DNA from: an uncultured Candidatus Saccharibacteria bacterium
GTDB taxonomy: Bacteria; Patescibacteriota; Minisyncoccia; Phycocordibacterales; UBA9973
DNA: 43,427 nt
Assembly: GCA_964638985.1 (NCBI GenBank)
Contig: CAZXCD010000005.1
Span: 1 to 43,427, forward strand
Reading direction: 5' to 3'
Below are positions 6,784-42,227 of the stretch, in pieces. Position numbers and translations under genes: made by a program. The notes below the pieces were generated by a model, which was given only the letters and a program-made list of their open reading frames with translations, was not told the origin of the DNA and ran no database searches. Position 1 is the stretch's first letter; the number at the start of each line of letters is the position of its first letter.

Positions 6784-8820
6784 ATGCAACATCTGGCAGG
6801 GCTAAATAAAGAACAAAGAGAGGCGGCGCTTCATATGGAAGGTCCGCTTCTTATTGTCGCCGGAGCAGGAGCGGGGAAAACCAAGACTATTACGCACAGA
6901 ATAGTAAATTTGATAAAAAATGGAGTCGCTCCCGAAAAAATTCTGGCCGTTACTTTCACCAACAAGGCTGCGAAGGAAATGCGGGAAAGAATTATCGCGG
7001 AAATCCAAAAAAATGCCAAGGGGCAGGACAAAATCCCTTTTGTTTCCACTTTTCACTCGCTGGGAGTCTACATAATAAAGGAAAATGCTCGATTACTGGG
7101 ATTGACTAAATATTTCACTATTTTAGATGAGGGCGATGCGACAACTTTAATAAAAAATATATTGAAAGAGCTAGGCATAGACCCAAAACAATACGACCCC
7201 AAGAAAATAAAAAATATAATCTCGCGAGAGAAGGAAAAATTCGTGCATTTGTCCGACTATGCGGAAGGAGCCAGTGACACTTTGGGGAAAATAGTGGCGC
7301 AAGTGTGGAATCTATACGAAAAGCAAAAAATGAAAGAAAACTCCCTGGATTTTGATGATTTGCTCTTAAAAGCGACAAAATTGTTGAAAGAAAATGCGGA
7401 AATAAGGAAAATTTATCAGGAAAAATGGGACTACATACATATAGATGAGTATCAAGACACCAACGAAGTGCAATATTTGATGTCTAAACTGCTTTCGGAA
7501 AACAATAACAACATTTGTGTCGTGGGGGACCCAGATCAGTGTATATATTCATGGCGTCAAGCAGACATGAGAAATATCTTAAACTTCGAAAAAGACTACA
7601 GAGATGCAAAAATAATTTTATTGGAGCAGAATTACCGCTCCACGAAGAACATCCTGGAAGCAGCCAATGAAATAATAAAGAAAAATAAGTACCGTCCGGA
7701 CAAAAATTTATTTACCGACAACGTGGTGGGAGAAAAAATAGGACTCTATGAAGCGCTGGATGAAACCGACGAAGCGGAATTCGTAGCGACAAAAATTCTG
7801 GAAATTATGGATGGTCCACACCCTCCCCAAACCCCTCCCTCCGCGGGGGGGGAGGAATCCTCTCCCCCTGCGAAGGGGGAGTGCCACGACTTGAGTCGAG
7901 GCGAGGGGGTGAATCCCTCCGAAATTGCTCTGTTATACCGCGCGAACTTTCAATCCCGAGCACTGGAAGAAGCGATGCTTCGTTACAACATCCCATATCA
8001 AGTTCTGGGTGTGAAATTTTTTAAAAGAAAAGAAATCAAAGATACCCTTGCGTACCTCCGCGCCGCCTTGAACCCCGACAGCCTTTCGGATATAAAAAGA
8101 ATAATAAATTTCCCTGTACGAGGAATAGGTAAAGTCACCTTGGTGAAAATCTTTGCCAACGAGATTGAGAGTCTGCCGATAAAAGTCCGAATAAAAATTA
8201 ATAACTTTTATCAAATTCTAGAAGAAATAAAGGAAAAAATTAAAACTGCCAAGGCGAGTGAGGTAATAAAGTTCGTGGTAAAGAAGTCCGGGATTGAGCA
8301 AGAACTTCTAAACGGGGGAGAAGAGGATATAGAGAGATTGGAGAACATTAAAGAACTCGCCACTCTAGCGCTCAAATACGACAATCTGGAAAATGGTACA
8401 GGGATAGAAAAGCTTTTAGAAGATGGTGCCCTAGCTTCAGACCAAGATAGCTTAATGATAAATCAAGATAAGTCTGAGCGAGGACTACCCTCGCTCAAAA
8501 ACGGAGTGAAATTGATGACAGTCCACGCCTCAAAAGGTCTTGAATTCAAATACGTTTTTGTCACTGGACTGGAAGACGGACTCTTCCCACACGAAAGACA
8601 AAATGAGAGACAGGCAGGCGAAGACCGAGAAGAAGAGCGCCGACTTTTCTATGTAGCACTCACTCGCGCCAAAGAAAAATTATTTTTATCCTTTGCGAAT
8701 TTCCGCACTATTTTCGGCTCCCGCCAAATAAATGCTCCATCAGAATTCATCTCTGACATCCCAGCAGATTTATTAGAAAAGGAAGGCGAAACTAGCGGAA
8801 TAAAGACGATTTATCTATAA
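6784..8820 (+). CDS. pcrA: ATP-dependent DNA helicase PcrA/UvrD (SF1)
   Basis: Walker A AGAGAGKTKT, DEYQDTN, VVGDPDQCIYSWRQA, NYRST, VHASKGLEF, RRLFYVALTRAK. Confidence 0.9.
   Translation: MQHLAGLNKEQREAALHMEGPLLIVAGAGAGKTKTITHRIVNLIKNGVAPEKILAVTFTNKAAKEMRERIIAEIQKNAKGQDKIPFVSTFHSLGVYIIKENARLLGLTKYFTILDEGDATTLIKNILKELGIDPKQYDPKKIKNIISREKEKFVHLSDYAEGASDTLGKIVAQVWNLYEKQKMKENSLDFDDLLLKATKLLKENAEIRKIYQEKWDYIHIDEYQDTNEVQYLMSKLLSENNNNICVVGDPDQCIYSWRQADMRNILNFEKDYRDAKIILLEQNYRSTKNILEAANEIIKKNKYRPDKNLFTDNVVGEKIGLYEALDETDEAEFVATKILEIMDGPHPPQTPPSAGGEESSPPAKGECHDLSRGEGVNPSEIALLYRANFQSRALEEAMLRYNIPYQVLGVKFFKRKEIKDTLAYLRAALNPDSLSDIKRIINFPVRGIGKVTLVKIFANEIESLPIKVRIKINNFYQILEEIKEKIKTAKASEVIKFVVKKSGIEQELLNGGEEDIERLENIKELATLALKYDNLENGTGIEKLLEDGALASDQDSLMINQDKSERGLPSLKNGVKLMTVHASKGLEFKYVFVTGLEDGLFPHERQNERQAGEDREEERRLFYVALTRAKEKLFLSFANFRTIFGSRQINAPSEFISDIPADLLEKEGETSGIKTIYL
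7817..7911 (+). repeat. GC-rich multi-hairpin element, family A, in-frame in pcrA
   Basis: Ends CACACCCTCCCC...GAGGGGGTG. Internal hairpins include CTCCCCC-TGCGAA-GGGGGAG and CGAC-TTGA-GTCG. Encodes PHPPQTPPSAGGEESSPPAKGECHDLSRGEGV. Confidence 0.8.
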
Positions 8821-8835
8821 TGAAAGGAATATTAT

Positions 8836-10377: not shown

Positions 10378-11222
10378 AAGCAAAAAAATCATTGGGGCAA
10401 AATTTTTTAAAGTCGGAGATTGCGCTCAAGAAGATTGTTGAAGCGGGAGAAATAAAAAAGAGCGACGTGATTTTGGAAATCGGCCCAGGGAAAGGAGCGC
10501 TCACAGAAAAACTGTTAGCTTCTGGCTGTCAGCTTGTAGCTGTGGAGAAAGATCGAGATTTATATGAATTATTGAAAGATAAATTTCAGAAAGAAATTGC
10601 GGAAGGAAAATTAGTTTTGTTAAACGAAGACATACTTAAATTTCAAATTTCCAATTTCAAATTTCCAAAATATAAAATCATCGCCAACATTCCTTACAAC
10701 ATCACCGGCGCGATTTTAAAAAAATTTTTAACAGAAAAAAATCAGCCGGAAAGAATGATTTTGATGGTCCAGCGCGAAGTGGCGGGGAGAATAATCGCCC
10801 GCGATGGGAAGGAAAGCATTCTTTCAATGTCAGTCAAGGCTTACGGGGAACCAAAAATGATAATGAAGGTAAATAAAAGATATTTCTCTCCAGCGCCCAA
10901 AGTTGATTCCGCGATAATTGAAATAAAAAATATTTCGAGAAAAAATTTTCCTCCCCTCCTTGTGGAGGAGGGGGCAGGGGGTGGTGATTCAAAGAGATTA
11001 CCACCTCGCCCTTCGGGCACTCCTCCTCAAAAAAGAGGAGAGGGGACATTCGAGGAAAAATTTTGGGAAATAGTAAAAACCGGCTTTGCGCACAAACGTA
11101 AAAAACTTTCTTCAAACCTAAAAGGATTAATTTCTCCCCAAAAACTGTCTTCGGTAAACCTAGGTGACAAAAGGGCGGAAGATTTGGCTCTTTCAGACTG
11201 GATAAACCTAGCTAAAAACTAG
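10374..11222 (+). CDS. rsmA: 16S rRNA (adenine1518/1519-N6)-dimethyltransferase RsmA/KsgA
   Basis: LGQNFL, EIGPGKGALT, ANIPYNIT, and C-terminal FAHKRKKL. The ATGA start overlaps the upstream stop. Confidence 0.9.
   Translation: MKAKKSLGQNFLKSEIALKKIVEAGEIKKSDVILEIGPGKGALTEKLLASGCQLVAVEKDRDLYELLKDKFQKEIAEGKLVLLNEDILKFQISNFKFPKYKIIANIPYNITGAILKKFLTEKNQPERMILMVQREVAGRIIARDGKESILSMSVKAYGEPKMIMKVNKRYFSPAPKVDSAIIEIKNISRKNFPPLLVEEGAGGGDSKRLPPRPSGTPPQKRGEGTFEEKFWEIVKTGFAHKRKKLSSNLKGLISPQKLSSVNLGDKRAEDLALSDWINLAKN
10950..11046 (+). repeat. GC-rich multi-hairpin element, family B, in-frame in rsmA
   Basis: CCTCC-TTGT-GGAGG, GGTGG..CCACC and CCTCCTC-A6-GAGGAG hairpins. Encodes PLLVEEGAGGGDSKRLPPRPSGTPPQKRGEG. 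About 80% identical by eye to the copy at 24122-24216. Confidence 0.8.
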
Positions 11223-14756: not shown

Positions 14757-17201
14757 ATGAAAAATTTAGCCAAAAAACTAGTCCCATATTTATTTATACT
14801 CATCGCGCTAGTTGGGTTGTTTGGGTGGGCAGAGAAAGCGGAAGCCGAAAGCCCAGATGACCGGGGAGATTGTAAAATCACTACAGAATCTGCTTCGGGT
14901 AATACACCTCCCAGAATTGAAACTAAGGAAAATATAACAAGAGCGCAATGCACCGCGCTGAAGACTCCAACGGCAAGTACAGTATTTACTTTGAAAGTAG
15001 CAGTAGATGATATTAAAGGGATGTGTACGACTAATACCACAGTAACCGAGGATACAAAAAAACATTGTGAAGACGGCGGGGGGCAGTGGAGGCTAAAAGG
15101 AACTGATAATAATCCAGATGCAGCACCAGAAGCAGAGGATTCGGAAAAATCTGCGTTTGAAAACAAACTAAATTTAACTTGCAAAAACCCAATTAGTAAT
15201 TTTTCAGGATGTTTTCTACAAGTTTTCTATTGGCTTCTTCACGACATCCCAGCGCTTCTACTGGGAATTTCTGGTTATTTTTTTAATATCTTAATATCTG
15301 TGTCACTAGATGGTACTTTATTAAAAAGTGCTTTTGTAGGAGAAGCTTGGGGGGTGGTAAGAGACCTTTCAAACATTTTCTTTATACTTATTCTCCTCTA
15401 TATTGCTGTCAAAATTATTGTGGATTTAGAAGGACACGAGGCAAAACAAATGATAGTAAAAGTTGTAATTATGGCTTTGCTTATAAACTTTTCTATGTTT
15501 TTTACTCAAGTCATCATTGACACATCAAACGTTTTAGCTCTAGTTTTCTACAACAAAATGAAGGTAAGTACCGTAAACCCTGACGGTAACGAAAGACAGT
15601 ATTCTTCAATAAAGAACGAAAAAGATATTTCGGGTGGCTTGGTGGCCTCGTTTGATCCCACGACAAAGATACTGAGCTCGGGCTTTTTTGAACAAATAGA
15701 AAAAAAATATGACGCTAATGGAAAGATTATAGTCATAAATGGACAAGAACAAAGACAGCCCATAGGATTTGGAACAAAACTGGCAATCATTGTTCTTTCT
15801 GGCGCCATTATGATTGTCGCGACTTATGTTCTATTTGTCTCGGGGTTCTTCTTCCTTGGAAGATTGATTGAACTATGGACTTTAATTATTTTCTCTCCAT
15901 TCGCCTTTATGTCTTATACTGTACCTAAACTATCAGAGATGGAAGAATTGGGTTGGAAATCATGGTTTAAACGCTTAATCAGCTCGGCCTTTATGGCGCC
16001 GATTTTTATGTTCTTTTTGTATTTTATATTTATGTTAATAGCCTCTCCATTATTTAAAAATCTTATGCCGGAAAGCACTGAAACAACTGGCGTGGCTGGG
16101 TGGATAAAAATTATATTAAACGTGCTGTTGCCTTTTATATTTATTTGCGTACTTCTTCTGAAAGCAAAAGACTATGCGAAGAAAGGTTCCGGACAATTTG
16201 GGGAGGCGGTGATGAGTGTAGCCAAGGTCGCGGGTGGACTCGCCTTGGGTGCCGCAACGGGCGGGGTTTCAATAATGGGAACTGGAGCGGTTGGAAGTTT
16301 GTCTTCTGGAGTGGCAAGTAGTAAATTCCTAAATGAAAACCAAAATAAAAAAGGGTTGGGGGGTATGGCTGCTAGGGTGGCCCTAAAAACCGCAGACTAT
16401 GGTTCTAAGGCTTCATTTGATGTTAGAAAAATAGCTGGTGTCGGGGCTTTAGCTAAGATGGGCGGAATAAATCTAGAATCAGTAAAAGCAATCGGACTAG
16501 GATCTAAAGATGGTGGATATATACAAAGAAGAAAGGAACAAGTAGCAAGTAGGCAGAAGAGGGCAAAAGAGCTTGAGATAAGAGAAGATGAGCCATTAAA
16601 ACAAGCTTTAAATAAAGCAGAAGCAGACCTGCAAAGTCTTTTGAGTGACAACCATAACGTAATCGAGTCGCTAGATAAAGACATAGAAAAGAAAAGACAA
16701 GAGGTAAGCGATGCAGAGAAAAAATTCAACTCGGCTAAGGGTACTGCTAATGAAGGGGCTGCGAGAACAGCGTTAGATTTAGCAAACACTAAATTAGACT
16801 TCGCAAAAAACAACAAGCAGGATTTCCGAACAGGACAACAGTATAGAACTTATGATAGGGCAGGAAATTTTGTGCTCCAAACTGGAACTGGTCAAAATAT
16901 TAACGACCTAGAGGAAAACAAAAAACATGCGGCTCATGACATACAAAAAGAAAACAGGGCAAGAAAATGGGCTTATGCTGAAAGAATAGTAAAATGGAGT
17001 CCGGGATTTTATAAAGCCGACAGAGAAGCTGCTCATAAAATACGAATGGAAGCAAAAATAGAAGATACAGGAAAAGATCATGGAGGTGGTGGTGGAGGGC
17101 ATGCCCCAGCGGCAGCTCACCCTGCACCCCCGGCTCATGGCCCAGCTCCAGCAGTTGCACCTGCCGCCCCAGCTCATGGTCCCGCCCCCCACCAACCATA
17201 A
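14757..17201 (+). CDS. VirB6/TrbL-like polytopic membrane protein with coiled-coil and His/Pro/Ala-rich tail
   Basis: Signal peptide, Cys-pair N-terminal module, multi-TM block (about aa 150-500), K/E-rich coiled coil, and tail GGGGGGHAPAAAHPAPPAHGPAPAVAPAAPAHGPAPHQP. It lies next to the VirB3/VirB4-like genes. Confidence 0.55.
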   Translation: MKNLAKKLVPYLFILIALVGLFGWAEKAEAESPDDRGDCKITTESASGNTPPRIETKENITRAQCTALKTPTASTVFTLKVAVDDIKGMCTTNTTVTEDTKKHCEDGGGQWRLKGTDNNPDAAPEAEDSEKSAFENKLNLTCKNPISNFSGCFLQVFYWLLHDIPALLLGISGYFFNILISVSLDGTLLKSAFVGEAWGVVRDLSNIFFILILLYIAVKIIVDLEGHEAKQMIVKVVIMALLINFSMFFTQVIIDTSNVLALVFYNKMKVSTVNPDGNERQYSSIKNEKDISGGLVASFDPTTKILSSGFFEQIEKKYDANGKIIVINGQEQRQPIGFGTKLAIIVLSGAIMIVATYVLFVSGFFFLGRLIELWTLIIFSPFAFMSYTVPKLSEMEELGWKSWFKRLISSAFMAPIFMFFLYFIFMLIASPLFKNLMPESTETTGVAGWIKIILNVLLPFIFICVLLLKAKDYAKKGSGQFGEAVMSVAKVAGGLALGAATGGVSIMGTGAVGSLSSGVASSKFLNENQNKKGLGGMAARVALKTADYGSKASFDVRKIAGVGALAKMGGINLESVKAIGLGSKDGGYIQRRKEQVASRQKRAKELEIREDEPLKQALNKAEADLQSLLSDNHNVIESLDKDIEKKRQEVSDAEKKFNSAKGTANEGAARTALDLANTKLDFAKNNKQDFRTGQQYRTYDRAGNFVLQTGTGQNINDLEENKKHAAHDIQKENRARKWAYAERIVKWSPGFYKADREAAHKIRMEAKIEDTGKDHGGGGGGHAPAAAHPAPPAHGPAPAVAPAAPAHGPAPHQP

Positions 17202-17214
17202 TAGTTAAAAACTT

Positions 17215-17715
17215 ATGACAGAAAAATTACAAAAAATAATTAAAGAAGAAATTACGAAACTGCCTAAAGAAAATCAAGAAGTGATTAATGCTTTTGATTG
17301 GGTAAAAATAACGGAAGAAATTGGTAAAAAGTATCTTCTTGATGAAAATGAGATAAATGATTTACAAGTAGAAACGCTTTTGGTTTTGGTTGGGCTAGAA
17401 GAACCTGATTCTTTCGCAAAAAACATTGAAGACGAGGTGGGGACAAGTAAAGGAGAAGCGGATAAAATAACAGAGGAAATTTTACAAAAAATATTTATTC
17501 CGATAAATGATATCCTTATAGAGAACATTAAGAAAAGCGAAAAAATGAAAGACTCAAAATGGAATCAAAACCTTGATTTCATCCTCTCTGGTGGAAATTA
17601 TTCCAGTTTCTTGGAGAAAAGAGACAATATAGTTAATACAACCCCCACTTCCCCCTTGTCAGGGGGAACCACTTCTCCTCGCCCTGATAAGGGAGAGGTT
17701 GGGAGAGGGTTTTAG
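17215..17715 (+). CDS. hypothetical acidic protein (paralog of the next ORF)
   Basis: Shares the pattern LP.EN...INA..W....ET.L.L..L..P with ORF 17727. The C-terminal 25 aa derive from a repeat element. Confidence 0.5.
   Translation: MTEKLQKIIKEEITKLPKENQEVINAFDWVKITEEIGKKYLLDENEINDLQVETLLVLVGLEEPDSFAKNIEDEVGTSKGEADKITEEILQKIFIPINDILIENIKKSEKMKDSKWNQNLDFILSGGNYSSFLEKRDNIVNTTPTSPLSGGTTSPRPDKGEVGRGF
17640..17712 (+). repeat. GC-rich hairpin element (family B-like) forming the C-terminus of ORF 17215
   Basis: TTCCCCC-TTGTCA-GGGGGAA and CCTCGCCC-TGATAA-GGGAGAGG hairpins. Encodes TPTSPLSGGTTSPRPDKGEVGRGF, followed by the stop. Confidence 0.7.
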
Positions 17716-17726: not shown

Positions 17727-18479
17727 ATGGAAAACACAACTGATTTATTACAAATAAAAATTGAAAAAGCAAAAGCACAGTTGCCAGAGAATACATTGAA
17801 TGCTATCAATGCCGTCCCTTGGCAAGCCATCATATTACAGATGAGGGAGACAAAAGGATATAGCTTTGAACAATTAGGCGAATTAGAGACTGAAACAGAA
17901 TTATTACTCTGTGACCTTTTAAATCCGGAAAATTACCAAAAAGAATTGAAGGACCGCATGAAACTTTCAGACTCTCAGGTGAATGAATTAGTAAATGAAA
18001 TGAATAAACTTGTTTTTGTGAAAATAAAAGAAGAATTAATTAGAGGCACTGGAAATAAAAAAGTCTCCACAAACGAAACCAAAAATGCTCAGAATATCCC
18101 TATTAAAACCGCGCTAAGTGACAAAGAGCAAGAAAGAGACACCCAGATCCTAAAATCCGCCGGGATTGAGATTATTCCGGACCTGCCCGCAGCACCTTCA
18201 GCACAGCTGATGCAGGCGGGAAAGTTGGAAATAAGTTCTCCTCTTGAGGAGTACTCCACCCATAAAGTGGAGGGAGGTGGAAATGCATCCACCCCGGCTA
18301 AGGCCACCCCTCAAGAGGGGAATATTCATCCAATCTTGACTCAAAAATTGTCCGGCTTTGTGAAGAATAGTGTCGTGGAGACAGACCATTCTTTGCATAA
18401 TATTTCTCCAAAAGAATCCGAGAACACTCCCGGTGGTAATGTAAAAAAAATAGACCCCTATCGCGAGATTCCAGAATAA
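17727..18479 (+). CDS. hypothetical protein (paralog of ORF 17215)
   Basis: N-terminal similarity to the preceding ORF; carries a four-hairpin GC-rich insert. Confidence 0.5.
   Translation: MENTTDLLQIKIEKAKAQLPENTLNAINAVPWQAIILQMRETKGYSFEQLGELETETELLLCDLLNPENYQKELKDRMKLSDSQVNELVNEMNKLVFVKIKEELIRGTGNKKVSTNETKNAQNIPIKTALSDKEQERDTQILKSAGIEIIPDLPAAPSAQLMQAGKLEISSPLEEYSTHKVEGGGNASTPAKATPQEGNIHPILTQKLSGFVKNSVVETDHSLHNISPKESENTPGGNVKKIDPYREIPE
18238..18320 (+). repeat. four consecutive short GC-rich hairpins, in-frame in ORF 17727
   Basis: CTCCTC..GAGGAG, CTCCAC-N7-GTGGAG, GGTGG-N8-CCACC, CCCCTC..GAGGGG. Encodes SPLEEYSTHKVEGGGNASTPAKATPQEG. Confidence 0.7.
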
Positions 18480-18493: not shown

Positions 18494-18919
18494 ATGCAGT
18501 TCAAGGTACCTCAATTTTTAGACATAGAGGACAAAATATTCGGCCCCTTTACTTTTAGGGAGTTTGCTTATTTGGCCGGTGGCGCAGGTCTGTGCTTCGT
18601 CCTTTACAAATTGCTTGGGCTTATTTTCGGAGCCATCCCTATTTTAATTATCGCCGGGTTTTCCATCGCCCTGACTTTCTACAAACCAAACAACAAACCC
18701 TTCATCAATATGATAGAGGCGGGATTTAAATATTTTACCCAAAACAAGCTTTATATTTGGAAAAAGCATGCGGGCAAAACCTCACCTCCAGCCCCTCTCC
18801 CGAGAGGAGAGAGTGGCGAAAAGCCGGGTGAGGTGGGTTCAAAATTAAACGGGAGCAGACTCCGAGACTTGGCGTGGAGTCTGGACGTTTTGGATTTAAG
18901 TAAACAAAAAAAGAGTTAA
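18494..18919 (+). CDS. PrgI-like (VirB3-analogue) T4SS membrane protein
   Basis: N-terminus MQFKVPQFLDIEDKIFGPFTFREF followed by two TM helices, as I recall for the PrgI family. It sits immediately upstream of the VirB4-like genes. Confidence 0.6.
   Translation: MQFKVPQFLDIEDKIFGPFTFREFAYLAGGAGLCFVLYKLLGLIFGAIPILIIAGFSIALTFYKPNNKPFINMIEAGFKYFTQNKLYIWKKHAGKTSPPAPLPRGESGEKPGEVGSKLNGSRLRDLAWSLDVLDLSKQKKS
18779..18834 (+). repeat. GC-rich hairpin element, family C, in-frame in the prgI-like gene
   Basis: Terminal inverted repeat ACCTCACC...GGTGAGGT encloses CCTCTCC-CGAGA-GGAGAGA. Encodes TSPPAPLPRGESGEKPGEV. Confidence 0.75.
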
Positions 18920-19566: not shown

Positions 19567-21417
19567 ATGGACTTTTTTAAAAAATTATTAGGTGGGAAAA
19601 AAGCGACGGAAGAAAAGGAAGTGAGAGCTTCTGTCTTGGCGGTGATGCCAGAAGAAATTTATCAGTCCGCCACCCTGGAACTCCAAGATGTCATCGCACC
19701 ATCAGCTTTAAAAATCGCCTCCAAATCCATAAGTCTGGGAGATAAAATTGCTCGCACTTTTTTTATTATTTCTTACCCTAGATTCCTGACGGACAATTGG
19801 TTTTCTCCCATAATCAACTTAGATAAGGTTTTTGATATTTCCATTTTCATCCATCCGATAGACACCTCCCTAGTACTCCGACAATTCCAGAAAAAAGTCG
19901 CCGAAGTACAGAGCCAGATAAGTGTGCGCGAAGCGAAGGGAATGGTGCGCGACCCGATGCTTGATACCGCTTATCAAGATTTGGAAGGGCTCCGCAACAA
20001 TTTGATTCAAGCGCAAGAAAAAATGTTTGACGTGGGCATTTACATTACAATTTATGCCGACAACGAACTGGAACTTTTCAAAATAGAAAATGAGATAAAA
20101 TCAATCCTGGAATCAAAGCTCATCTACATCAAACCGGCGCTCTTCCAACAGGAAGATGGTTTCAAGAGCGTTATCCCCATAAACACAGACCTGCTCGGCA
20201 TTCATCAGAAGTTGAATTCTGAACCGCTTAGTAGCGTCTTCCCATTTATCTCCTTTGACCTGACCTCCGACAAAGGTATACTCTACGGCATCAACAGACA
20301 CAACTCCAGTCTGGTCATCTTTGACAGATTTTCTTTGGAAAATTACAACTCAGTAACCTTCGCCAAGTCCGGCTCCGGAAAATCTTACGCAACAAAATTG
20401 GAAATCTTAAGATCGCTAATGTTTGACGTGGATGTCATTGTGATAGACCCGGAGAGGGAATATGAATTCTTGTCGGAGGCCGTGGGGGGAAGATATTTTA
20501 ATATTTCTCTTTCTTCAGACCACCACATCAATCCTTTTGACCTGCCCATCCCGCACGAAGATGAAACAGCCGAGGATGTTTTGCGTTCAAACATAATAAA
20601 CTTGGTAGGACTTTTCAGATTGATGTTGGGCGGACTGACTCCCGAAGAAGATTCAATGGTGGACCGAGCTATTTCCGAAACTTACGCCATGAAAGATATC
20701 ACTCCCGAGTCTGATTTCTCAAACATTGAGCCTCCGCTTCTCTCAGACTTTGAGTTGGTGCTCGGAGGAATGGACGGAAGCGATTCAATAGTCACCAGGT
20801 TGGCGAAATATACGCGCGGTTCTTGGGCGACATTCTTAAACAGACCATCCAATGTGGATATCAACAAAAAATTCGTGGTATTTTCCGTCCGTGACATGGA
20901 GGACGAACTGAAACCAGTAGCCATGTACATCATTATGCATTACATCTGGAATACGATAAGAAAAAATCTAAAAAAACGCTTACTGGTCGTAGACGAGGCC
21001 TGGTGGATGATGAAATCCGAAGACACCGCGTCATTCTTGTACTCTATCGCCAAGAGAGGCAGAAAATATTACCTGGGTCTTTCCACCATCACCCAAGACG
21101 CGGCAGACTTTATGAAGTCTCCATATGGTGTGCCTATCATTACCAACTCTTCCATTCAGCTTCTCCTCAAACAATCGCCCACTACTATAGATATTTTGCA
21201 AAAAACCTTCAACCTTACAGATGAAGAAAAATATTTGCTCTTGGAATCCGGACTCGGGGAGGGCATCTTCTTCGCGGGGTTAAAACACGTCGCCATAAAG
21301 GTTATTTCTTCTTACACAGAAGACCAGATAATCACCTCAGACCCTTCACAGATACTTTCAAATAGAAAAGCCAAGGAAGAGCAGGAACGGGCGGAGACTG
21401 AAAGAACCTCACCCTAG
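19567..21417 (+). CDS. virB4: VirB4-like T4SS ATPase (central and C-terminal ATPase part)
   Basis: Walker A FAKSGSGKSYATK, Walker B LLVVDEAWWMM, and the IAPSALK....FFIISYPRFL pattern typical of VirB4/TraC-like proteins. Confidence 0.85.
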   Translation: MDFFKKLLGGKKATEEKEVRASVLAVMPEEIYQSATLELQDVIAPSALKIASKSISLGDKIARTFFIISYPRFLTDNWFSPIINLDKVFDISIFIHPIDTSLVLRQFQKKVAEVQSQISVREAKGMVRDPMLDTAYQDLEGLRNNLIQAQEKMFDVGIYITIYADNELELFKIENEIKSILESKLIYIKPALFQQEDGFKSVIPINTDLLGIHQKLNSEPLSSVFPFISFDLTSDKGILYGINRHNSSLVIFDRFSLENYNSVTFAKSGSGKSYATKLEILRSLMFDVDVIVIDPEREYEFLSEAVGGRYFNISLSSDHHINPFDLPIPHEDETAEDVLRSNIINLVGLFRLMLGGLTPEEDSMVDRAISETYAMKDITPESDFSNIEPPLLSDFELVLGGMDGSDSIVTRLAKYTRGSWATFLNRPSNVDINKKFVVFSVRDMEDELKPVAMYIIMHYIWNTIRKNLKKRLLVVDEAWWMMKSEDTASFLYSIAKRGRKYYLGLSTITQDAADFMKSPYGVPIITNSSIQLLLKQSPTTIDILQKTFNLTDEEKYLLLESGLGEGIFFAGLKHVAIKVISSYTEDQIITSDPSQILSNRKAKEEQERAETERTSP

Positions 21418-21484
21418 CCCTCTCCTGGAAGGAGAGGGGGAAATTAGTCCCTTCCCATTCCAGGGGAAGGCGGGGGATGAGGTT
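21405..21484 (+). repeat. GC-rich hairpin element, family C (full copy), overlapping the virB4 stop codon
   Basis: Perfect terminal inverted repeat AACCTCA...TGAGGTT. Inner hairpins CCCTCTCC-TGGAA-GGAGAGGG and CCTTCCC-N7-GGGAAGG. The virB4 TAG lies inside the element. Confidence 0.8.
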
Positions 21485-21516
21485 AGCATTAGGAAATGCT
21501 ATAATAATCACAAGTT

Positions 21517-22511: not shown

Positions 22512-23804
22512 ATGATTTTATTAAATCAAATGAAAAAACTTTTTATTTACATTTCAATACTAATAGTAATAACCGGAATATTTAGTCCAATATTTAAAAC
22601 AGAAGCGGCAGATCCTCAGATGGGGACTTGTACCTACACGTATGAATCCTATGGTAAACCTGTTATTGAAAAAACTCGTACCATAAAAGATAATTGTAAA
22701 GGACCAGATAGGGTGTGGGAACCGGATACTGCTCCATCAGCAGACACAGCACTAGGAACTTGTACCTACACGTATGAATCCTATGGTACTCAAAAATTTG
22801 AACTTACTCGCACCTTTAAAACTAATTGCACTGGAGCAGACAGAACCTGGAAGGAATCAACGCTGGCAGAATTTCAAGCAGAAAAAGCTGCCAAGGAAGG
22901 CACTGGCGGTGAAAAAGATGATGGTTTTGTGGGACCTCCAGATCCATATTATCATTTTTTAGCCCCATTACCTTGCGAACCAGGAACTCCCGATTGTGAC
23001 AGCAGTGGAAAACTTATAACCTTTGATCCTAGTGGAGAAAACAAAATAGGTGGGTATTTGAATGTAATGATACGAATATTCATTGGTATGTGCGCCGTGT
23101 TGGCGGTGATAATGATTGTCGTGGGGGGCATAGAATATATGACGAGTGAGTTGATATCAAATAAAGAAAATGGCAAACACCGGATTACCGGCGCAATCTT
23201 CGGACTTGTACTGGCCTTAGGAGCCTGGACGCTTCTAAATACAATCAATCCTGATTTATTGAAGACAGATTTAACAAGTTTGCAAAATGTAGAGGTGGTA
23301 GTAGATCTAGGTGGTGAAGGAAATACTCCACTCAATGAAACAACGATCCAAAATGATTTAAAAGGTGTCGGCATTGTTTGCCCTAAAGATGGTGGGGCTG
23401 GAGCACTTTCTGGAATTGCCCAATCTTATGTTGGACACTCAACTTATAGTATGGAAAAAAGAAATACCACAAGTGGAGGGATAGCTTATGTTGATTGTTC
23501 TTCTTATTTGAGTCAGGTCTATGTATGTGCGGGGCTTAGAAACCCTGGAGGTACCTCTCTTGGAATATTTGGCTCAGGAAGTACCCCTGTCACAAGCATT
23601 AGTACAGACGGAACAACAATAAATGGTGTGGCTCTAAAAATTGGTGACTTAATCGGATGGACCGCGGGTGGAAAAGAAAAATATGGCCATGTTATGATGT
23701 ATGTGGGTGGCGGAAAAATGATTGACGCACAAGGACAAGGTGGTGTAGCAATAAGGGCGGTAAGTTCCTACGCAGCAAGAATAAAATTTGTTAAAAAACT
23801 TTAA
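22512..23804 (+). CDS. fusion protein: tandem Cys modules + TrbC/VirB2-like pilin hairpin + NlpC/P60 cell-wall hydrolase
   Basis: Signal peptide. Two 44-aa repeats (GTCTYTYESYG...NC.G.DR.W). Two TM helices (IGGYLNVMIRIFIGMCAVLAVIMIVVGG / ITGAIFGLVLALGAWTLL). NlpC/P60 Cys (VDCSSYLSQVY) and His (GHVMMYVGGGKMIDA). Confidence 0.7.
   Translation: MILLNQMKKLFIYISILIVITGIFSPIFKTEAADPQMGTCTYTYESYGKPVIEKTRTIKDNCKGPDRVWEPDTAPSADTALGTCTYTYESYGTQKFELTRTFKTNCTGADRTWKESTLAEFQAEKAAKEGTGGEKDDGFVGPPDPYYHFLAPLPCEPGTPDCDSSGKLITFDPSGENKIGGYLNVMIRIFIGMCAVLAVIMIVVGGIEYMTSELISNKENGKHRITGAIFGLVLALGAWTLLNTINPDLLKTDLTSLQNVEVVVDLGGEGNTPLNETTIQNDLKGVGIVCPKDGGAGALSGIAQSYVGHSTYSMEKRNTTSGGIAYVDCSSYLSQVYVCAGLRNPGGTSLGIFGSGSTPVTSISTDGTTINGVALKIGDLIGWTAGGKEKYGHVMMYVGGGKMIDAQGQGGVAIRAVSSYAARIKFVKKL
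22626..22788 (+). repeat. intragenic tandem duplication (exact 31-mer ACTTGTACCTACACGTATGAATCCTATGGTA at 22626 and 22758, period 132 nt)
   Basis: Read directly. Corresponds to the duplicated 44-aa Cys module. Confidence 0.85.
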
Positions 23805-23808
23805 TTTT

Positions 23809-27354: not shown

Positions 27355-28698
27355 ATGAATACAAAAGAGTTGTGGAAAAATTGTTTAATGGAAATAGAGT
27401 CCGGTATATCAAAGGCAAATTTCAGCACCTGGTTTAAAAATACTTCCATCATAAAAGAAGACACTGGCATTGTCTATATAGGGGTGCCCAACGAATTTGT
27501 CCGCGATTGGCTTATAAATAAATACCACAAGCTTATCACTAAGACCATTGCGGACGCATACGAAAATATGCGCGCTGTGGAGTACGTTATTGTGAAAACC
27601 GAAAATTTAAAACAAGAACCAGCGGTAACCACCGAAATAACCATAGAAAAGGAGCTACCTTTGAAAGATTTATACATAAATCAAGAAGACAACTTAAATC
27701 CACGCTATCAATTCAATTCTTTTATCGTGGGAACCTTCAACGAGCTCGCTTATGCCGCGGCGCAAGCGATAATAGATTCCCCGGGAACAAAATACAATCC
27801 ATTTTTTATTTATGGAGGCACCGGGCTCGGCAAAACTCACTTGATTCAAGCGGTGGGGAACTCAATAAAAGAAAAATACCCGAACAAAAAGGTGCATTAT
27901 ATGACTTTGGAGAAATTCGCCACGGATTTTGTTAATTCTCTGCAAAACAACAAGGCAAATTCTTTTAAAGAAAAATATCGCAAGTATGACTTGTTAATCA
28001 TAGACGATATTCAATTTATCGGTAAAATGGAGAAAATTCAAGAAGAGCTTTTCCACACCTTCAATACCTTTCATGAGAACAACAAACAAATTATCTTCTC
28101 CTCGGACAAACACCCCAACTATATCCCCGAGCTGGCGGATAGGCTAAAGTCGCGTTTTGCCGCTGGAATGATTGTTGATATCTCAGAGCCGGAATATGAG
28201 TCCCGCCTTGCCATTTTAAAAGTGAAACTACGCGAACTTAATGTTGATTTAGCGGAAGAATTGGTGGAATACGTGGCTGGATCCGTCCAGGGCAACATTA
28301 GAGAGCTTGAGGGAAGCCTCAACCTCATAGTTTGCCAATATCGCTTAAAAAACAAGCCCTTAACGCTTATGGAGGTGAAGAACCTGCTAAAAAACAACAT
28401 GAAGCCGAAGAAAAATATGGCCATAAAGGATGTGGTAAAGATAGTAAGCGAATACTATAAATTGGAAGAGGCTTCGGTTTATGAAAAAACAAGAAAAAAA
28501 GAGATTGTAAAAGCCAGACAAATCGTAATGTATCTGCTTCGGGAAGATTTTAACGTCTCGTATCCTTTAATTGGACAAAAGTTGGGAGGAAAGGATCACA
28601 CCACGGTAATCCACTCCTGTTTGAAAATAAAAGCGGACCTAAAAAACGATTCACAACTACTGCAAGAGCTGGAACAAATAAGAATTATGTTTAAATAG
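27355..28698 (+). CDS. dnaA: chromosomal replication initiator protein DnaA
   Basis: Walker A GGTGLGKTHL, Walker B LLIIDDIQF, and C-terminal DNA-binding region (GGKDHTTVIHSC). Confidence 0.95.
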   Translation: MNTKELWKNCLMEIESGISKANFSTWFKNTSIIKEDTGIVYIGVPNEFVRDWLINKYHKLITKTIADAYENMRAVEYVIVKTENLKQEPAVTTEITIEKELPLKDLYINQEDNLNPRYQFNSFIVGTFNELAYAAAQAIIDSPGTKYNPFFIYGGTGLGKTHLIQAVGNSIKEKYPNKKVHYMTLEKFATDFVNSLQNNKANSFKEKYRKYDLLIIDDIQFIGKMEKIQEELFHTFNTFHENNKQIIFSSDKHPNYIPELADRLKSRFAAGMIVDISEPEYESRLAILKVKLRELNVDLAEELVEYVAGSVQGNIRELEGSLNLIVCQYRLKNKPLTLMEVKNLLKNNMKPKKNMAIKDVVKIVSEYYKLEEASVYEKTRKKEIVKARQIVMYLLREDFNVSYPLIGQKLGGKDHTTVIHSCLKIKADLKNDSQLLQELEQIRIMFK

Positions 28699-30035: not shown

Positions 30036-30070
30036 ACCTCACCCCAACCCTCTCCTGAAAGGAGAGGGGA
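30036..30070 (+). repeat. GC-rich hairpin element, family C (half copy)
   Basis: AACCTCACCCCAA + CCCTCTCC-TGAAA-GGAGAGGG. Collinear with the left half of 21405-21484. Ends 5 nt before the next start codon. Confidence 0.7.
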
Positions 30071-34899: not shown

Positions 34900-35457
34900 T
34901 TACTCCGCGTTTGTATAGATTTCTTGGACATCATCCATCTCTTCGAGTTCTTCCACGAGTTTATCTAAAAGTTCCAAGTCCGCATCTGAAAGAGAAATAG
35001 TGCTAGTCGGTATCCAAACAAGTCCTTCAGGGGTTCTTGCCCCGCCCTGGCGTGGGTTTTGCTTGGTGAATGCCCAAGTGACGGAGCCGATGCCTCCTAA
35101 AGCAAAACCATTTTTTGTAAGTATGTGTTTTATATCTTGCGCTGTTCTGTTTTTACTGTCTGTAAGTGTTTCAATAATTATACCCACTCCTCCCGGTCCA
35201 TGAGTTTCATAAGTAATGGCATCCATATGCGCTCCTGGCTCACTCGCTTTTTTTACCGCTCTCTCTATAACATCTCCAGACATATTTACTTTTTTTGCTT
35301 TTTCAATCGCGGCGCGGAGCCCGGGGGACTCTTTTCCGCCGGAGAGTTTCGCTTCTACAGAAATGAAACGCACCAGTTTAGAAAAGATTTTGCTTTTCTT
35401 GGCATCAGTGATGGCCTTTTGTCTTTTGATTTGTGTCCAACGATTATGACCTGACAT
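34900..35457 (-). CDS. yebC: YebC/PmpR family DNA-binding regulator
   Basis: MSGHNRWTQIKRQKA...KSKIFSKL start and GGIGSVTWAF region. Shorter than typical at 185 aa. Confidence 0.85.
   Translation of the reverse strand: MSGHNRWTQIKRQKAITDAKKSKIFSKLVRFISVEAKLSGGKESPGLRAAIEKAKKVNMSGDVIERAVKKASEPGAHMDAITYETHGPGGVGIIIETLTDSKNRTAQDIKHILTKNGFALGGIGSVTWAFTKQNPRQGGARTPEGLVWIPTSTISLSDADLELLDKLVEELEEMDDVQEIYTNAE
35036..35052 (-). repeat. 17-nt GC hairpin CGCCAGGGCGGGGCAAG (family D), in-frame in yebC
   Basis: The exact reverse-complement match to polA 40947-40963. Encodes NPRQGGA in both genes. Confidence 0.7.
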
Positions 35458-36853: not shown

Positions 36854-36986
36854 TTCACCCCTCAGGCATTTCTATGCCAGCTCCCCTTCGCAGGGGAGCA
36901 AAAATCCAATACTAATATGAATCTTGATTACAGAGAATTTTTCCTCCCCTGCGAAGGGGAGGTGCCCGTTAGGGCGGAGGGGTGAA
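36854..36986 (+). repeat. GC-rich element, family A long form (two halves split by a 44-nt AT-rich spacer)
   Basis: TTCACCCCT...AGGGGTGAA termini. Hairpins GGCAT-N4-ATGCC, CTCCCC-TTCGCA-GGGGAG, CCTCCCC-TGCGAA-GGGGAGG. The right half encodes the C-terminal 18 aa of the DUF559 ORF. Confidence 0.75.
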
Positions 36987-37326
36987 TACAATCTTTTATT
37001 TTTTGCAGTACATTTTTTATATTTTTATCTATTTCACTATTCCAAAGTCTCAATACCTTTATTCCCAAGGTTTCTATATAGCTGTCTCTTTCTTTGTCGT
37101 ATTCTTTTTCATCTTTATGTTGAGCGCCGTCCAATTCAATTATTAAATTGTGTTCTTTGCAATAAAAATCAACAACGTACGGGCCTATCCCATGTTGTCT
37201 CCTAAATTTTACGCCCAATTTTTTATTTCTTAAAAAATGCCAAAGTTTAAGTTCTTGTGGAGTTGAAAATTTTCTCAATTCTTTTCTGCGAGGTAGAAAT
37301 TTAGATTTGTTAAATACTTCATACAT
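36928..37326 (-). CDS. DUF559 (Vsr-like / PD-(D/E)xK fold) endonuclease-domain protein
   Basis: STPQELKLWHFLRN...FRRQHGIGPYVVDFYC....LIIELDG.QH.....YD..RD.YIE..G..VLR is the classic DUF559 pattern. The longer ORF-track start at 37371 runs into a repeat terminus, so ATG 37326 is preferred. Confidence 0.8.
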   Translation of the reverse strand: MYEVFNKSKFLPRRKELRKFSTPQELKLWHFLRNKKLGVKFRRQHGIGPYVVDFYCKEHNLIIELDGAQHKDEKEYDKERDSYIETLGIKVLRLWNSEIDKNIKNVLQKIKDCIHPSALTGTSPSQGRKNSL

Positions 37327-37339: not shown

Positions 37340-37478
37340 TCACCCCTCTGTTTTTTGATTACAAAAAACACCTCCCCTTCGCAGGGGAGGAAAAACCGCT
37401 AATCATATGTTTAGGGAGTATTTGCCTTTCCTGCGAAGGAAAGGTGGCTCTGTGTAATCACAGAGACGGAAAGGTGAA
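37340..37478 (+). repeat. GC-rich element, family A long form (degenerate)
   Basis: TCACCCCTC...AAGGTGAA termini. Hairpins TGTTTTTT-N6-AAAAAACA, CCTCCCC-TTCGCA-GGGGAGG, CCTTTCC-TGCGAA-GGAAAGG, CTCTGTG-TAAT-CACAGAG. Confidence 0.65.
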
Positions 37479-39726: not shown

Positions 39727-39734
39727 TTAATCCA

Positions 39735-42227
39735 ATGTCTAAAGATAATAAAAGAGTAGTCTTATTGGATGCTCACGCCATAATACATCGCGCTTATCAT
39801 GCGTTGCCGGAGTTTTTGTCTTCAAAGGGTGAGCCGACGGGGGCGCTCTATGGTCTTTCTAGTATGTTGATGAAGATAGTTACTGATCTAAAACCGGACT
39901 ATATCGTCGCTTGTTATGATTTACCGCAAAAGACCTTCAGACACGAAGCTTATGACGCGTATAAAGCCGGACGAGCAAAGGTTGACGAGGCTCTAATTGT
40001 CCAGTTGCAGAATTCTCGGCAAATTTTTGAAGCTTTTAACATTCCCATTTACGATGCGCCGGGCTTTGAAGCGGATGATGTTTTGGGGACGATAGTAAGA
40101 CAATTTTACCCCCACCCAGCCTCCCCCTATGTAGGGGGAGGGGCTGAAAGCGGAGGGGGGATAGATATTATCATCGCTTCCGGAGATATGGATACGATGC
40201 AGTTGGTGGATGACAAAAAGGTCCAAGTTTATACCTTAAAAAAAGGAATTAACGATACTATTCTATACGACGAAGATGCTGTAGTGAAGCGTTTTCATTT
40301 CAAGCCGAAGCTTTTGCCGGACTATAAAGGTTTGCGCGGAGATCCTTCAGACAACATTATCGGCATCAAGGGTATAGGTGAAAAAACAGCAGAAACCTTG
40401 ATTATAAATTTTGGCACCATAGAAGAAATATACAAACAATTACGAATGGACAATTACGAATTACGATTTAAAGAGGCGGGTATTAGCCCTAGAATGATTG
40501 AGTTGCTAAAAAATAACGAAGAAGAAGCTTTGTTTTCAAAGACGTTGGCAACTATCCGCACGGATGCGCCGATAAATTTTTCTTTGCCGTCAAAAACTTT
40601 TTGGGAAAATGCGGATTTGAAGAAAATTGAAGAAGTTTTCGCGACGTTTGAATTTAGGAGCTTGCTCGGACGACTAAAAAACTTCTTTGAGAACAATGGG
40701 AAGGCAAATCTAGCAGAATTTTCTCAGGTCCTCGGTTCTCCGGGGCCCCAAACCCCGGCCAGACCATTCAAAAATTCTCTAGATTTACCGTCCCCAGAGA
40801 AAATCCAAGAAGCCAGTATTGCTCTATGGGTTATCAATTCCGAGATGTCCAATCCGAAACTGGAAGACATTTTGCTTTTTGCTCACACTGAATCTTTTGA
40901 GACGGCGTATAATTTTATTTTTACAAAACTGAAAGAGAAAAATCCCCGCCAGGGCGGGGCAAGCTTAGAAAAAGTATATGAGGAGATAGAAAAGCCGATA
41001 ATCCCCGTCGTAAAAGAAATGGAAAATCACGGTATTTTGGTAGATAAAAAATATTTTGAAAAATTATCGGAAGAGTATCATAAAGAGTTGGATATTTTAA
41101 CAAAAAAGATATACAGCCAGGCCGGCACCGAATTCAATATCAATTCCCCGAAGCAATTGGGTGAAATACTTTTTGGAAAATTAGGGATGAAGTCACCAGG
41201 AAAAAATAAAGCAAAAAAGAATGCCAGTGGCGCGTTTTCTACCAAGATTTCCGTTCTAGAAGAACTGGAAGGAGAGAATGAAATAATAAAAGAAATAATG
41301 GCTTATCGGGAACTGCAGAAACTGCTATCAACGTACATTGATGTTATCCCTAAAATGGCGGGAGAAGATGGTCGTCTTCACGCCAAATTTATCCAAAACG
41401 GTTCCACTACTGGAAGGTTCTCTTCCCAAGACCCGAATTTACAGAACTTGCCGATAAAAACGGAATTGGGTAAGAAAATTCGCAACGGCTTTGTCGCGCA
41501 AAAGGGACACAAGCTCACCGCTTTTGATTACAGCCAGATTGAACTGCGGGCGGCGGCGATGCTTTCAGGAGACAAAAAAATGACCCAAGTTTTCCGAGAG
41601 AGGAAAGATATTCACGCTGGGGTGGCCTCGTTTGTTTTTGGAGTGCCGATAGAGAAAGTGGATAGTGAAATGCGTCGCCAGGCGAAAGTGATAAACTTCG
41701 GAATTATTTATGGTATGGGGGTTTCCGCTTTGCGGAAAAATCTCGGAGGCACTCGTGAGGAAGCGCAGAAATTTTATGATAATTATTTTACTCAATTTTC
41801 CGGTGTGCGAGATTATCTGGAGGGGGTGAAAGTTTTCGCTGGGGAACATTCTTATACGGAAACCTTGTTTGGTCGTAGGCGATATTTCCCGAATATAAAT
41901 TCCAGAATTCCTTTTTTAAAAAATATGGCTGAACGTACCGCTACAAATGCCCCCATCCAAGGAACCGCCGCTGACATTATCAAGCTTGCCATCAGATACG
42001 CGGAAGAGGATTTGGAAAAGGCGGGGTTGTTGGGCAAGGTTCATCTGGTACTTCAAATTCACGACGAGTTGGTTTATGAGGTAGAAGAAAAAGTTTTGCC
42101 AGAAGCCGATAAAATAATAAAAGAAGCCATGGAAGGAGTGCTTTTGCGGTCATATTTGCGTTATAAAACGGATGTTCCACTCCTCGTACATTCTGGGTCA
42201 GGAGACAATTTAGGGGAAGTAAAATAA
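39735..42227 (+). CDS. polA: DNA polymerase I (5'-nuclease + family A polymerase domains)
   Basis: N-terminal 5'-3' exonuclease motifs (LLDAHAIIHRAYHA, GFEADDVLGT, SGDMDTMQL, GIKGIGEKTA). Pol A motifs (DYSQIELR, RRQAKVINFGIIYG, QIHDELV). Confidence 0.95.
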   Translation: MSKDNKRVVLLDAHAIIHRAYHALPEFLSSKGEPTGALYGLSSMLMKIVTDLKPDYIVACYDLPQKTFRHEAYDAYKAGRAKVDEALIVQLQNSRQIFEAFNIPIYDAPGFEADDVLGTIVRQFYPHPASPYVGGGAESGGGIDIIIASGDMDTMQLVDDKKVQVYTLKKGINDTILYDEDAVVKRFHFKPKLLPDYKGLRGDPSDNIIGIKGIGEKTAETLIINFGTIEEIYKQLRMDNYELRFKEAGISPRMIELLKNNEEEALFSKTLATIRTDAPINFSLPSKTFWENADLKKIEEVFATFEFRSLLGRLKNFFENNGKANLAEFSQVLGSPGPQTPARPFKNSLDLPSPEKIQEASIALWVINSEMSNPKLEDILLFAHTESFETAYNFIFTKLKEKNPRQGGASLEKVYEEIEKPIIPVVKEMENHGILVDKKYFEKLSEEYHKELDILTKKIYSQAGTEFNINSPKQLGEILFGKLGMKSPGKNKAKKNASGAFSTKISVLEELEGENEIIKEIMAYRELQKLLSTYIDVIPKMAGEDGRLHAKFIQNGSTTGRFSSQDPNLQNLPIKTELGKKIRNGFVAQKGHKLTAFDYSQIELRAAAMLSGDKKMTQVFRERKDIHAGVASFVFGVPIEKVDSEMRRQAKVINFGIIYGMGVSALRKNLGGTREEAQKFYDNYFTQFSGVRDYLEGVKVFAGEHSYTETLFGRRRYFPNINSRIPFLKNMAERTATNAPIQGTAADIIKLAIRYAEEDLEKAGLLGKVHLVLQIHDELVYEVEEKVLPEADKIIKEAMEGVLLRSYLRYKTDVPLLVHSGSGDNLGEVK
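40109..40160 (+). repeat. GC-rich hairpin element in-frame in the polA 5'-nuclease domain
   Basis: CCCCC...GGGGG outer arms and CAGCCTCCCCC-TATGTA-GGGGGAGG(GG)CTG hairpin. Encodes PHPASPYVGGGAESGGG. Confidence 0.75.
40947..40963 (+). repeat. 17-nt GC hairpin CGCCAGGGCGGGGCAAG (family D), in-frame in polA
   Basis: Exact match (opposite strand) to yebC 35036-35052. CCCCGC-CAGG-GCGGGG hairpin. Encodes NPRQGGA. Confidence 0.7.

Follow-up and report, generated by a model that had tools for sequence, protein, structure and literature searches.

Frame-keeping G+C-rich palindromic repeats in an origin-proximal Candidatus Nomurabacteria contig and a possible partnership with a DUF559 nuclease

What are the short G+C-rich hairpin clusters that lie inside housekeeping genes of an ultra-small bacterial genome, and how have so many come to rest there with the host reading frame intact? 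The question is raised by contig CAZXCD010000005.1, one 43,427-base contig of its host genome (hereafter the window), whose proteins match exactly those of Candidatus Nomurabacteria bacterium GWB1_40_6 (Paceibacteria, candidate phyla radiation) and which is read here together with slices of about 20 kb from relatives, cited by locus handles (L001 and so on). The elements are dispersed, with related copies unlinked, they are polymorphic between close relatives, and the intragenic ones are always in frame. [quoted passage not shown] Nomurabacteria genomes.

The first step is to establish that the segments are real and distinct. Within a background of 40% G+C, the window contains embedded, sharp-edged islands of 60-70% G+C, as an earlier note on this DNA had described. 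When hairpins are called only if perfect (stem of at least 7 bp, loop of 3-8, stem G+C fraction of at least 0.6), there are 38 calls, about 20 of them distinct, against 0-5 in mononucleotide shuffles; applied to the window together with 81 related loci (1.5 Mb), the same definition gives 197 hairpins, where block shuffles give 7. Sequence reading and a folding-energy scan gather the hairpins of the window into about 15 elements of 35-137 nt, and DNA folding exceeds that of dinucleotide shuffles in 14 of the 15 element segments tested (z from -2.1 to -10.3). Density among related genomes ranges from 0 to 0.64 hairpins per kb; the window is one of the richest, and several related genomes of low G+C content (30-35%) have none. 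A scan of the whole window with Rfam matched no family at any element.

The elements have a common architecture. Nearly all window hairpins pair a pure C/T 5' arm with a pure G/A 3' arm, and the loops TTCGCA/TGCGAA, TTGT and TGAAA recur in both the hairpin scan and the sequence reading. Most copies are closed by terminal inverted repeats, either CACCC(C/T)TC...GAGGGGTG or ACCTCACC...GGTGAGGT, the end pairs found being CACCCCTC/GAGGGGTG, ACCTCACC/GGTGAGGT and ACCACCTC/GAGGTGGT. Family A copies align as a four-way junction of three hairpins and a closing stem, and a covariance model trained on six of them yields 131 matches, which represent about 70 distinct sites, in 88 related sequences totalling 1.55 Mb. 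The matches cluster at orthologous places: in ORF23788 and jag, at the virB4 end, in ORF17727 and immediately upstream of dnaA. Since this model also matches the family B, C and D copies of the window, the four families share one plan. The recurrent loops and terminal repeats had been recognised in the earlier note; its count of 16 copies in four families becomes about 15 elements of a single architecture.

Conservation in family A follows structure. In 29 distinct hairpins the T-GCGA-A loop hardly varies, and the stem changes by covariation, with 98% of cells paired and 40 double changes, and the three outer stem pairs, which were excluded from the selection criteria, are paired in 26-29 of the 29. 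Stem changes are almost exclusively from C:G to T:A, so that the 5' arm stays pyrimidine; the conserved parts are the loop and the TG that follows the 3' arm. Arms designed to be free of stops in all six frames were also considered, and 59 of 102 frames are open against 55.3 +/- 4.5 in shuffled elements, which is nothing beyond composition.

The intragenic segments are additions to their host proteins. In pcrA, a compact family A element (7817-7910, + strand; a closing stem and three hairpins, covariance model 104 bits, z = -2.96) lies in frame at about residues 345-376, immediately before ...EIALLYRAN, with the junction peptide ...ILEIMDGPHPPQTPPSAGGEESSPPAK...; in alignment with Geobacillus PcrA (1pjr), query residues 344-378 (35 residues) stand opposite 6. 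The rsmA/ksgA element (family B, 10949-11046, + strand, z = -2.84) is in frame between the methyltransferase and C-terminal domains, where query residues 196-230 stand opposite 7 in Coxiella KsgA (3tqs). Relative to Taq polymerase, Pol I has 13 extra residues directly before the conserved ...SGDMD strand, where an element at 40108-40164 (+ strand, z = -3.14) is in frame at residues 125-143 (YPHPASPYVGGGAESGGG), before IIIASGDMD; the junction peptide in Pol I is ...YPHPASPYVGGGAESGGGIDIIIASGDMD.... About 85 of 120 Pol I orthologues (75-89% identical) are contiguous at this 5'-nuclease site, and the remainder carry 3-19 extra residues of several unrelated kinds. Alignments put the RsmA and Pol I inserts in linkers or loops. 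The AlphaFold (AF2) model of PcrA is poor (mean pLDDT 63.6), too uncertain for mapping surface exposure; it shows the insert (residues 346-373) as a coil that links a helix to a strand, at pLDDT below 50. The distant homologues bear out both the three placements given in the earlier note and its view that the host families are normally contiguous there.

The same elements occur in independent assemblies (L002, L014, and Pol I and PcrA orthologues from other samples) and are therefore not assembly artefacts. The earlier note had named three outcomes that would count against it; the reverse was found in each case, in that homologues from other phyla lack the residues, the motifs are enriched, and independent assemblies carry the elements.

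How, then, are genes able to accommodate such segments? The inserts encode Pro/Gly/Ser/Glu/Ala-rich stretches of 8-35 residues, the host open reading frames (ORFs) of all elements are uninterrupted, and all ten internal window copies are in frame and stop-free. When the flanks of hairpin islands were matched between loci and lengths compared pairwise, differences were divisible by three in 468 of 513 comparisons (91%) at coding sites and in 184 of 592 (31%, the chance value) at intergenic ones; 55 of 90 classified islands of related loci lie inside genes. The multiple-of-three rule at coding sites argues for read-through translation rather than splicing or bypass. Strong local structure and residence in essential genes might still suggest that the segments go untranslated, excised from the mRNA or bypassed by the ribosome in the manner of the mobile bypass elements of some yeast mitochondria. 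Such a process would need no frame constraint, however, and with the difference between coding and intergenic sites, the lack of a host-frame stop in any intragenic copy and the lack of any Rfam intron or ribozyme match, we find it barely credible. Pfam annotation finds no intein among the window genes.

Dispersal bears on a second alternative, that the hairpins are a by-product of selection on protein sequence, with Pro/Gly linkers using complementary CCN and GGN codons and no mobile DNA involved. The location of inserts in linkers, their P/G/S/E-rich peptides and the variability of the jag and prgI linkers in all orthologues would be expected on this account. Yet the family B copies in rsmA and ORF23788, unrelated genes, share 91-94% of their DNA sequence, and neither site holds a B element in the closest relatives. 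Family A occupies pcrA, jag in reversed orientation and an intergenic spacer, so that one family is read in opposite directions in two proteins. The same elements lie in intergenic DNA (at 25194, at 30036 and beside the DUF559 gene discussed below), which largely refutes the proposal, and stem covariation around an invariant loop and the AT-richer palindromes with quite different peptides at the same sites add to the difficulty. Selection on protein alone is thus very improbable as the source of the hairpins.

Comparison of orthologues shows the insertion sites to be hot spots, which many unrelated families of elements reuse throughout the clade. The PcrA site is empty in about 12 of 118 orthologues (FVATKILEILD-SGLSEIAVLYRAN), and empty at the DNA level in L001 and L085, while in the others it holds at least eight unrelated peptide families, at times two in tandem. 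The DNA of these other families forms strong palindromes (minimum free energy -62 to -124 kcal/mol), which are AT-richer and encode quite different peptides. Similar behaviour is seen at the Pol I inter-domain linker, the jag linker and the rsmA and ORF23788 sites; L001 has a different element in rsmA. Families are shared between sites in different genomes, FSQVLGSPGP... and F(G/E)(A/N)GLAG(V/I)G... between PcrA and Pol I, and KTSPPAPL...GEV between PrgI and Pol I. The Pol I linker of the window (40697-40775, + strand) holds an imperfect palindrome in frame (NLAEFSQVLGPPGPQTPARPF); this segment, the second of the two polA copies proposed in the earlier note, folds weakly (z = -1.24), although orthologues reveal a widespread element family there. 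A metagenome scan with PcrA yielded only about six close relatives, which did not suffice to study covariation in the insert family most common at PcrA.

Two further observations concern relatives. The close PcrA orthologues P0005 and P0078 exceed 1000 residues and contain an intein domain (PF14890); PcrA of this clade thus hosts inteins besides palindromic inserts. The spacer upstream of dnaA, the likely origin, carries a hairpin element in many relatives (at about 9.75-9.93 kb in L047, L071, L053, L056, L032 and L062) and none in the window.

Comparison with the closest relative, L002 (Nomurabacteria RIFOXYB1_FULL_39_16, DnaA 98% identical), gives a sense of the pace of change. Five elements are common to the two and are 84-94% identical, in surrounding DNA of 80-88% identity. 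The two genomes differ cleanly in the presence of the 39-nt hairpin of ORF17727, L002 lacks the virB4-end element, and its ORF23788 site holds a different multi-hairpin element. In the PrgI linker (window 18775-18840, L002 about 1130-1195) an unrelated sequence of the same length stands between flanks about 95% identical. Turnover at hot spots is thus fast and not always by simple insertion. The L002 PrgI linker contains short repeats of the ATGACGA/ATGACAA type.

A third alternative is that the elements are selected functional modules (terminators, mRNA stabilisers, ribosome-binding-site hairpins or pause sites at domain borders) rather than selfish DNA. Two intergenic copies lend themselves to it. 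The compact family A element at 25194-25268 (unstranded, z = -6.7) lies between the convergent ORF23788 and jag and has A-rich and T-rich flanks; its site is empty in L009, L059, L037, L011 and L066 and is filled by other palindromes in other genomes, and it is a possible bidirectional terminator. The single-hairpin family C copy at 30036-30070 (+ strand, 94% identical in L002) lies between the dnaN stop and the ORF30076 start, and its purine arm puts GGAGAGGGG 6-14 nt before the ORF30076 ATG, at the position of a ribosome-binding site. Conservation of shared copies above the flanking DNA and the placement of intragenic copies at domain boundaries also speak for function. On the other side, most close orthologues function without the elements, related genomes differ widely in density, and a single site can have occupants from unrelated families. 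GNRA/UUCG loops are oriented without bias relative to the host gene (5 vs 3), which gives no sign of selection at the RNA level, and no T-run follows the hairpin in intragenic copies, A-rich and T-rich flanks being found only at 25194; the intragenic copies thus lack the combination of a G+C-rich hairpin and a T-run at a gene end by which intrinsic terminators are known. Function as a general account of the elements is therefore unlikely, whatever the role of individual copies.

Taken as selfish repeats, the elements would land anywhere in the genome. Within genes, the survivors would be stop-free additions of a multiple of three nucleotides at tolerant places such as inter-domain linkers, loops and C-termini, which would then be transcribed and translated into Pro/Gly/Ser/Glu/Ala-rich peptides, probably disordered. 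Tolerant places could in this way turn into hot spots, with the gain, replacement and erosion of elements far outpacing change in the gene around them, and some intergenic copies may have been co-opted, whether to terminate transcription between convergent genes or to hold a ribosome-binding site within a hairpin. Several points weigh against this interpretation. The conservation of shared elements above their flanks could reflect function or gene conversion instead of neutrality, and same-length replacements such as that in prgI are not accounted for by simple insertion. Translation of the inserts is inferred solely from frame conservation. No target-site duplication was recognised at clean indels, where diverged flanks limit the test, and no transposition event was directly observed in the 43-kb window and the slices of relatives.

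The remaining copies fill out the picture of an origin-proximal region whose gene order, from Pfam, runs pcrA, rsmA and a type IV secretion-like cluster (PrgI-like, VirB4-like, pilin/NlpC), then jag, yidC, rnpA, dnaA, dnaN, PBP and tyrS, then ruvC, yebC, ruvB, DUF559, pilB, tsaE and polA. A two-hairpin family D element (17640-17705, + strand, 94% identical in L002) forms the C-terminus of ORF 17215-17715, whose orthologues have variable C-termini. ORF 17727-18479 holds two elements in frame, where the earlier note had found one: the 39-nt hairpin (18182-18220, + strand, z = -3.28) and a multi-hairpin element with a closing stem and three hairpins (18240-18325, + strand, z = -4.64, 91% identical in L002). 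In the PrgI-like gene a family C element (18780-18838, + strand, z = -3.48) with ends ACCTCACC/GGTGAGGT fills the variable linker; the copy was rightly noted before, although comparison with L002 makes it a same-length replacement instead of a simple insertion. Another family C element (21405-21485, + strand, z = -3.68) supplies the last codons and TAG stop of virB4 and extends into the spacer, and the family B copy of ORF 23788-25191 lies in frame at 24119-24217 (+ strand, z = -3.37). In jag/R3H, a gene on the - strand, a compact family A element (25520-25613, + strand; covariance model 119 bits, z = -5.0) is in frame at about residues 69-99. The earlier assertion that copies inside ORFs keep the frame thus holds for continuous ORFs and ten internal copies. 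In yebC, a segment at 35038-35061 (- strand) adds the eight G+C-rich-encoded residues QNPRQGGA, an insertion that is genuine against more than 25 orthologues; it forms no hairpin (z = +0.27), and its membership of the hairpin elements is doubtful.

A separate question is what might move such repeats, and here the window offers one lead. The gene at 36928-37326 (- strand; OGI46096.1, 132 residues as annotated) encodes a DUF559 protein (PF04480), a Vsr-like PD-(D/E)xK nuclease whose closest solved relative is the endonuclease-like protein 3hrl, and family A ends stand on both sides of it. The L end consists of CACCCCTC, a small hairpin and then a TTCGCA-loop hairpin; the R end consists of a TGCGAA-loop hairpin, a small hairpin and then GAGGGGTG. 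Downstream lies a composite (36854-36986, unstranded, z = -10.3) of an L end, a 43-nt AT-rich spacer and an R end, whose right half encodes the last 19 or so DUF559 codons, as it does in L004; only the C-terminus of the gene overlaps an element, which narrows the earlier statement that an element lay there. Just upstream is a second composite (37340-37475, unstranded, z = -7.5), with 28 nt of spacer between the hairpins of its L and R ends. Each composite, with its AT-rich spacer, folds as one long hairpin.

The bracketing extends beyond the window. Family A ends flank DUF559 in nine of nine places (the window, L004, L162, L164, L167, L169, L171, L173 and L174) and in at least five contexts: pilB-ruvB, NUDIX-ruvB, NUDIX-ruvC, adjacent to PIF1 and in a ribosomal-protein operon. 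By identity to the window DUF559, L162, L164 and L167 (76-85%) have the gene between pilB and ruvB, L169 (74%) at NUDIX-ruvB, L171 (68%) at NUDIX-ruvC, L173 (63%) beside a PIF1 helicase and L174 (61%) beside ribosomal protein genes. Among 162 other sequences (2.05 Mb in total), only 5 contain the loop motif of family A. The arrangement in L173 and L167 runs from L end through DUF559 to R end, and in L173 the terminal repeat, CACCCCTCAG, is perfect over 10 bp; DUF559 is therefore nested in an element, and the compact copies in pcrA, in jag and at 25194 look, from their sequences, like L and R ends fused directly. Hairpin elements of B-like and other pyrimidine/purine types lie next to two remoter DUF559 homologues (51% and 57%). 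A cassette of about 720 bp that contains DUF559 is absent from the ruvB-pilB junction in about 35 related genomes and present with the same flanks in L004.

Because DUF559 is bracketed by element ends that compact copies carry joined together, a partnership of nuclease and hairpin can be proposed, in which the nuclease would recognise the TGCGAA-loop hairpin and drive the spread or maintenance of family A, much as REP-associated tyrosine transposase (RAYT) does for repetitive extragenic palindromes (REPs) and REPINs. That DUF559 moves the repeats, and did not just lodge in one, is a tentative idea and somewhat less likely than not. The broader idea, that DUF559 is a dedicated partner of a hairpin-repeat superfamily in candidate-phyla-radiation bacteria, with nuclease clades matched to hairpin families and compact derivatives remodelling the linkers of essential proteins, is likewise speculative and rather doubtful.

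The opposite arrangement deserves comparison: DUF559 would be a free-standing nuclease gene of homing type that landed in the middle of a family A element, or favours such elements as targets, while another, unseen enzyme or recombination spreads the repeats. DUF559 falls in one clade with Vsr and a homing endonuclease from a group I intron (PMC3424549), a fixed site either has the cassette or lacks it, and in L173 and L167 the gene stands exactly between the TTCGCA and TGCGAA hairpins that are adjacent in compact copies. Against it, the gene adjoins ruvB in the majority of genomes (63-85% identity), which prolonged vertical inheritance would explain better than homing does; the compact copies within coding regions are all free of such an invasion; and arrangements vary (R-gene-L, L-gene-R, added composites). 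Homing is accordingly rather improbable as the explanation. The idea that the nuclease mobilises family A has difficulties of its own. DUF559 adjoins ruvB in most genomes examined and so looks vertically inherited and not mobile in its own right; in L014 a family A copy lies in jag, but the pilB-ruvB junction lacks DUF559; L004 has the cassette and no dispersed family A copy in its 19 kb; and the association could equally fit a homing gene that invaded an element.

Other findings around this gene may be recorded here. Searching viral contigs with a family A hairpin 18-mer gave four matches, single terminator-like hairpins in contigs of 50-59% G+C, which were judged unrelated. Other cassettes at the ruvB-pilB junction, considered as nuclease cassettes, proved to hold unrelated genes; the gap contains unrelated small gene cassettes (0.7-2.2 kb) in L008, L036, L059, L068, L074, L078 and L081, and the junction is a general insertion hot spot in Nomurabacteria. 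At L176 1619-2670 a remote DUF559 homologue has a B-like hairpin composite on one side and a tRNA gene downstream, after which comes a gene for a large serine recombinase; the region may be an integrated mobile element.

How do the elements compare with known systems? Rickettsia palindromic elements (RPEs; Ogata et al. 2000, 2002), at least as summarised in PMC10969869, are dispersed palindromes, many of them located in genes without breaking the frame. The resemblance suggested in the earlier note holds for behaviour, since here too dispersed in-frame palindromes add peptides to housekeeping proteins of a reduced genome with no transposase known (Pfam annotation finds none among the window genes). 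The host, however, belongs to the candidate phyla radiation, the elements are much more G+C-rich than the genome, and their pyrimidine-arm/purine-arm hairpins are arranged in a multi-way junction of 35-135 nt. Each RPE encodes a conserved peptide, whereas these elements encode Pro/Gly/Ser/Glu-rich stretches; many unrelated families reuse the same hot spots at the level of the codon, with much greater turnover, and one family is tied to a nuclease gene. Judged by composition (60-70% G+C, pyrimidine/purine arms), homology to RPE-1 to RPE-10 is unlikely.

With the REP/REPIN-RAYT system, or REPtron, the elements share hairpin repeats and inverted doublets with a short spacer that make one long hairpin, as in the two composites beside DUF559. 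They also share a nuclease gene found once per locus examined, apparently vertically inherited, with repeats on both sides, and different gene clades adjoining different hairpin types (one example each). RAYT, though, is an HUH/Y1 (IS200/IS605-like) transposase and the gene flanked here a DUF559 PD-(D/E)xK (Vsr-like) nuclease. REP hairpins have a GTAG/CGTC tag at the foot, which these lack, and many copies here lie in frame within genes, whereas REPs are extragenic.

Bacterial MITEs (Correia, ERIC, BOX, SPRITE and others) are similarly small and bounded by terminal inverted repeats; they too encode nothing themselves, now and then form in-frame fusions and can behave like terminators. Among the differences, no target-site duplication was recognised for the present elements at clean indels with diverged flanks, they have no parent insertion sequence with a DDE transposase, and a far higher fraction lie inside genes. 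As candidates for an autonomous partner there are the L end-DUF559-R end units of L173 and L167; DUF559 is no known transposase, and the unit has not been seen moving. Fungal mitochondrial G+C-rich clusters, double-hairpin elements and translational bypass elements are G+C-rich hairpins that invade genes of A+T-rich genomes. The likeness lies in G+C-rich hairpin repeats within coding regions, here in a bacterial chromosome; mitochondrial bypass elements need not keep the frame, whereas these follow the multiple-of-three rule.

RPE-like behaviour is thus known, and what is new is the lineage, the architecture and the intensity of hot-spot reuse. Searches of the literature, within incomplete journal coverage, turned up no earlier account of such elements in the candidate phyla radiation, Patescibacteria or Nomurabacteria and nothing that ties DUF559 to repeats. 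Beyond the points already credited to it, the earlier note missed hot-spot reuse, replacement of the prgI type, the non-hairpin nature of the yebC segment and the tie between family A and DUF559. In-frame selfish palindromes have until now been treated as a peculiarity of Rickettsia; if the elements are of that kind, they occur here in an unrelated ultra-small-genome lineage and on a larger scale, with many families, with dozens of species using the same linker positions in PcrA, Pol I, RsmA, Jag and secretion-system proteins again, and with a turnover that outpaces change in the genes around them. Such sites amount to a natural experiment on which protein positions tolerate insertions and are a likely source of protein length variation; the inserts can mislead alignments, gene calling and phylogenies. 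The bracketing of DUF559 gives a first concrete handle on how such elements might move and suggests a function for a widespread domain. Were the partnership true, nuclease-repeat systems of the RAYT-REPIN kind would have evolved independently a second time, and the large orphan family DUF559 would have its first function.

Other features of the window stand apart from the hairpin elements. An island of about 350 bp and about 70% G+C (2285-2630), unlike the elements, adjoins tRNA-Gly (2143-2214); ORFs overlapping on its two strands have no Pfam match, and it may be foreign DNA inserted beside the tRNA gene. A short G+C-rich in-frame segment at 918-954 (RIPLGHSPTGEAD) lies within a UPF0102/YraN-like gene, beyond the range that the earlier note covered, where the Pfam match implies about 24 extra residues; its fold is weak (z = -1.7). 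ORF 14757-17201 ends in a low-complexity tail (17081-17198) that is G+C-rich and rich in Pro/Ala/Gly, with no hairpin element. At 27811-27891 (- strand) Rfam gives a match to AsdA, an antisense RNA to dnaA mRNA, that stays below threshold (33.5 bits against a gathering score of 52) and is probably conserved dnaA coding sequence. At 43376-43427 (- strand), a tRNA gene is truncated by the contig end.

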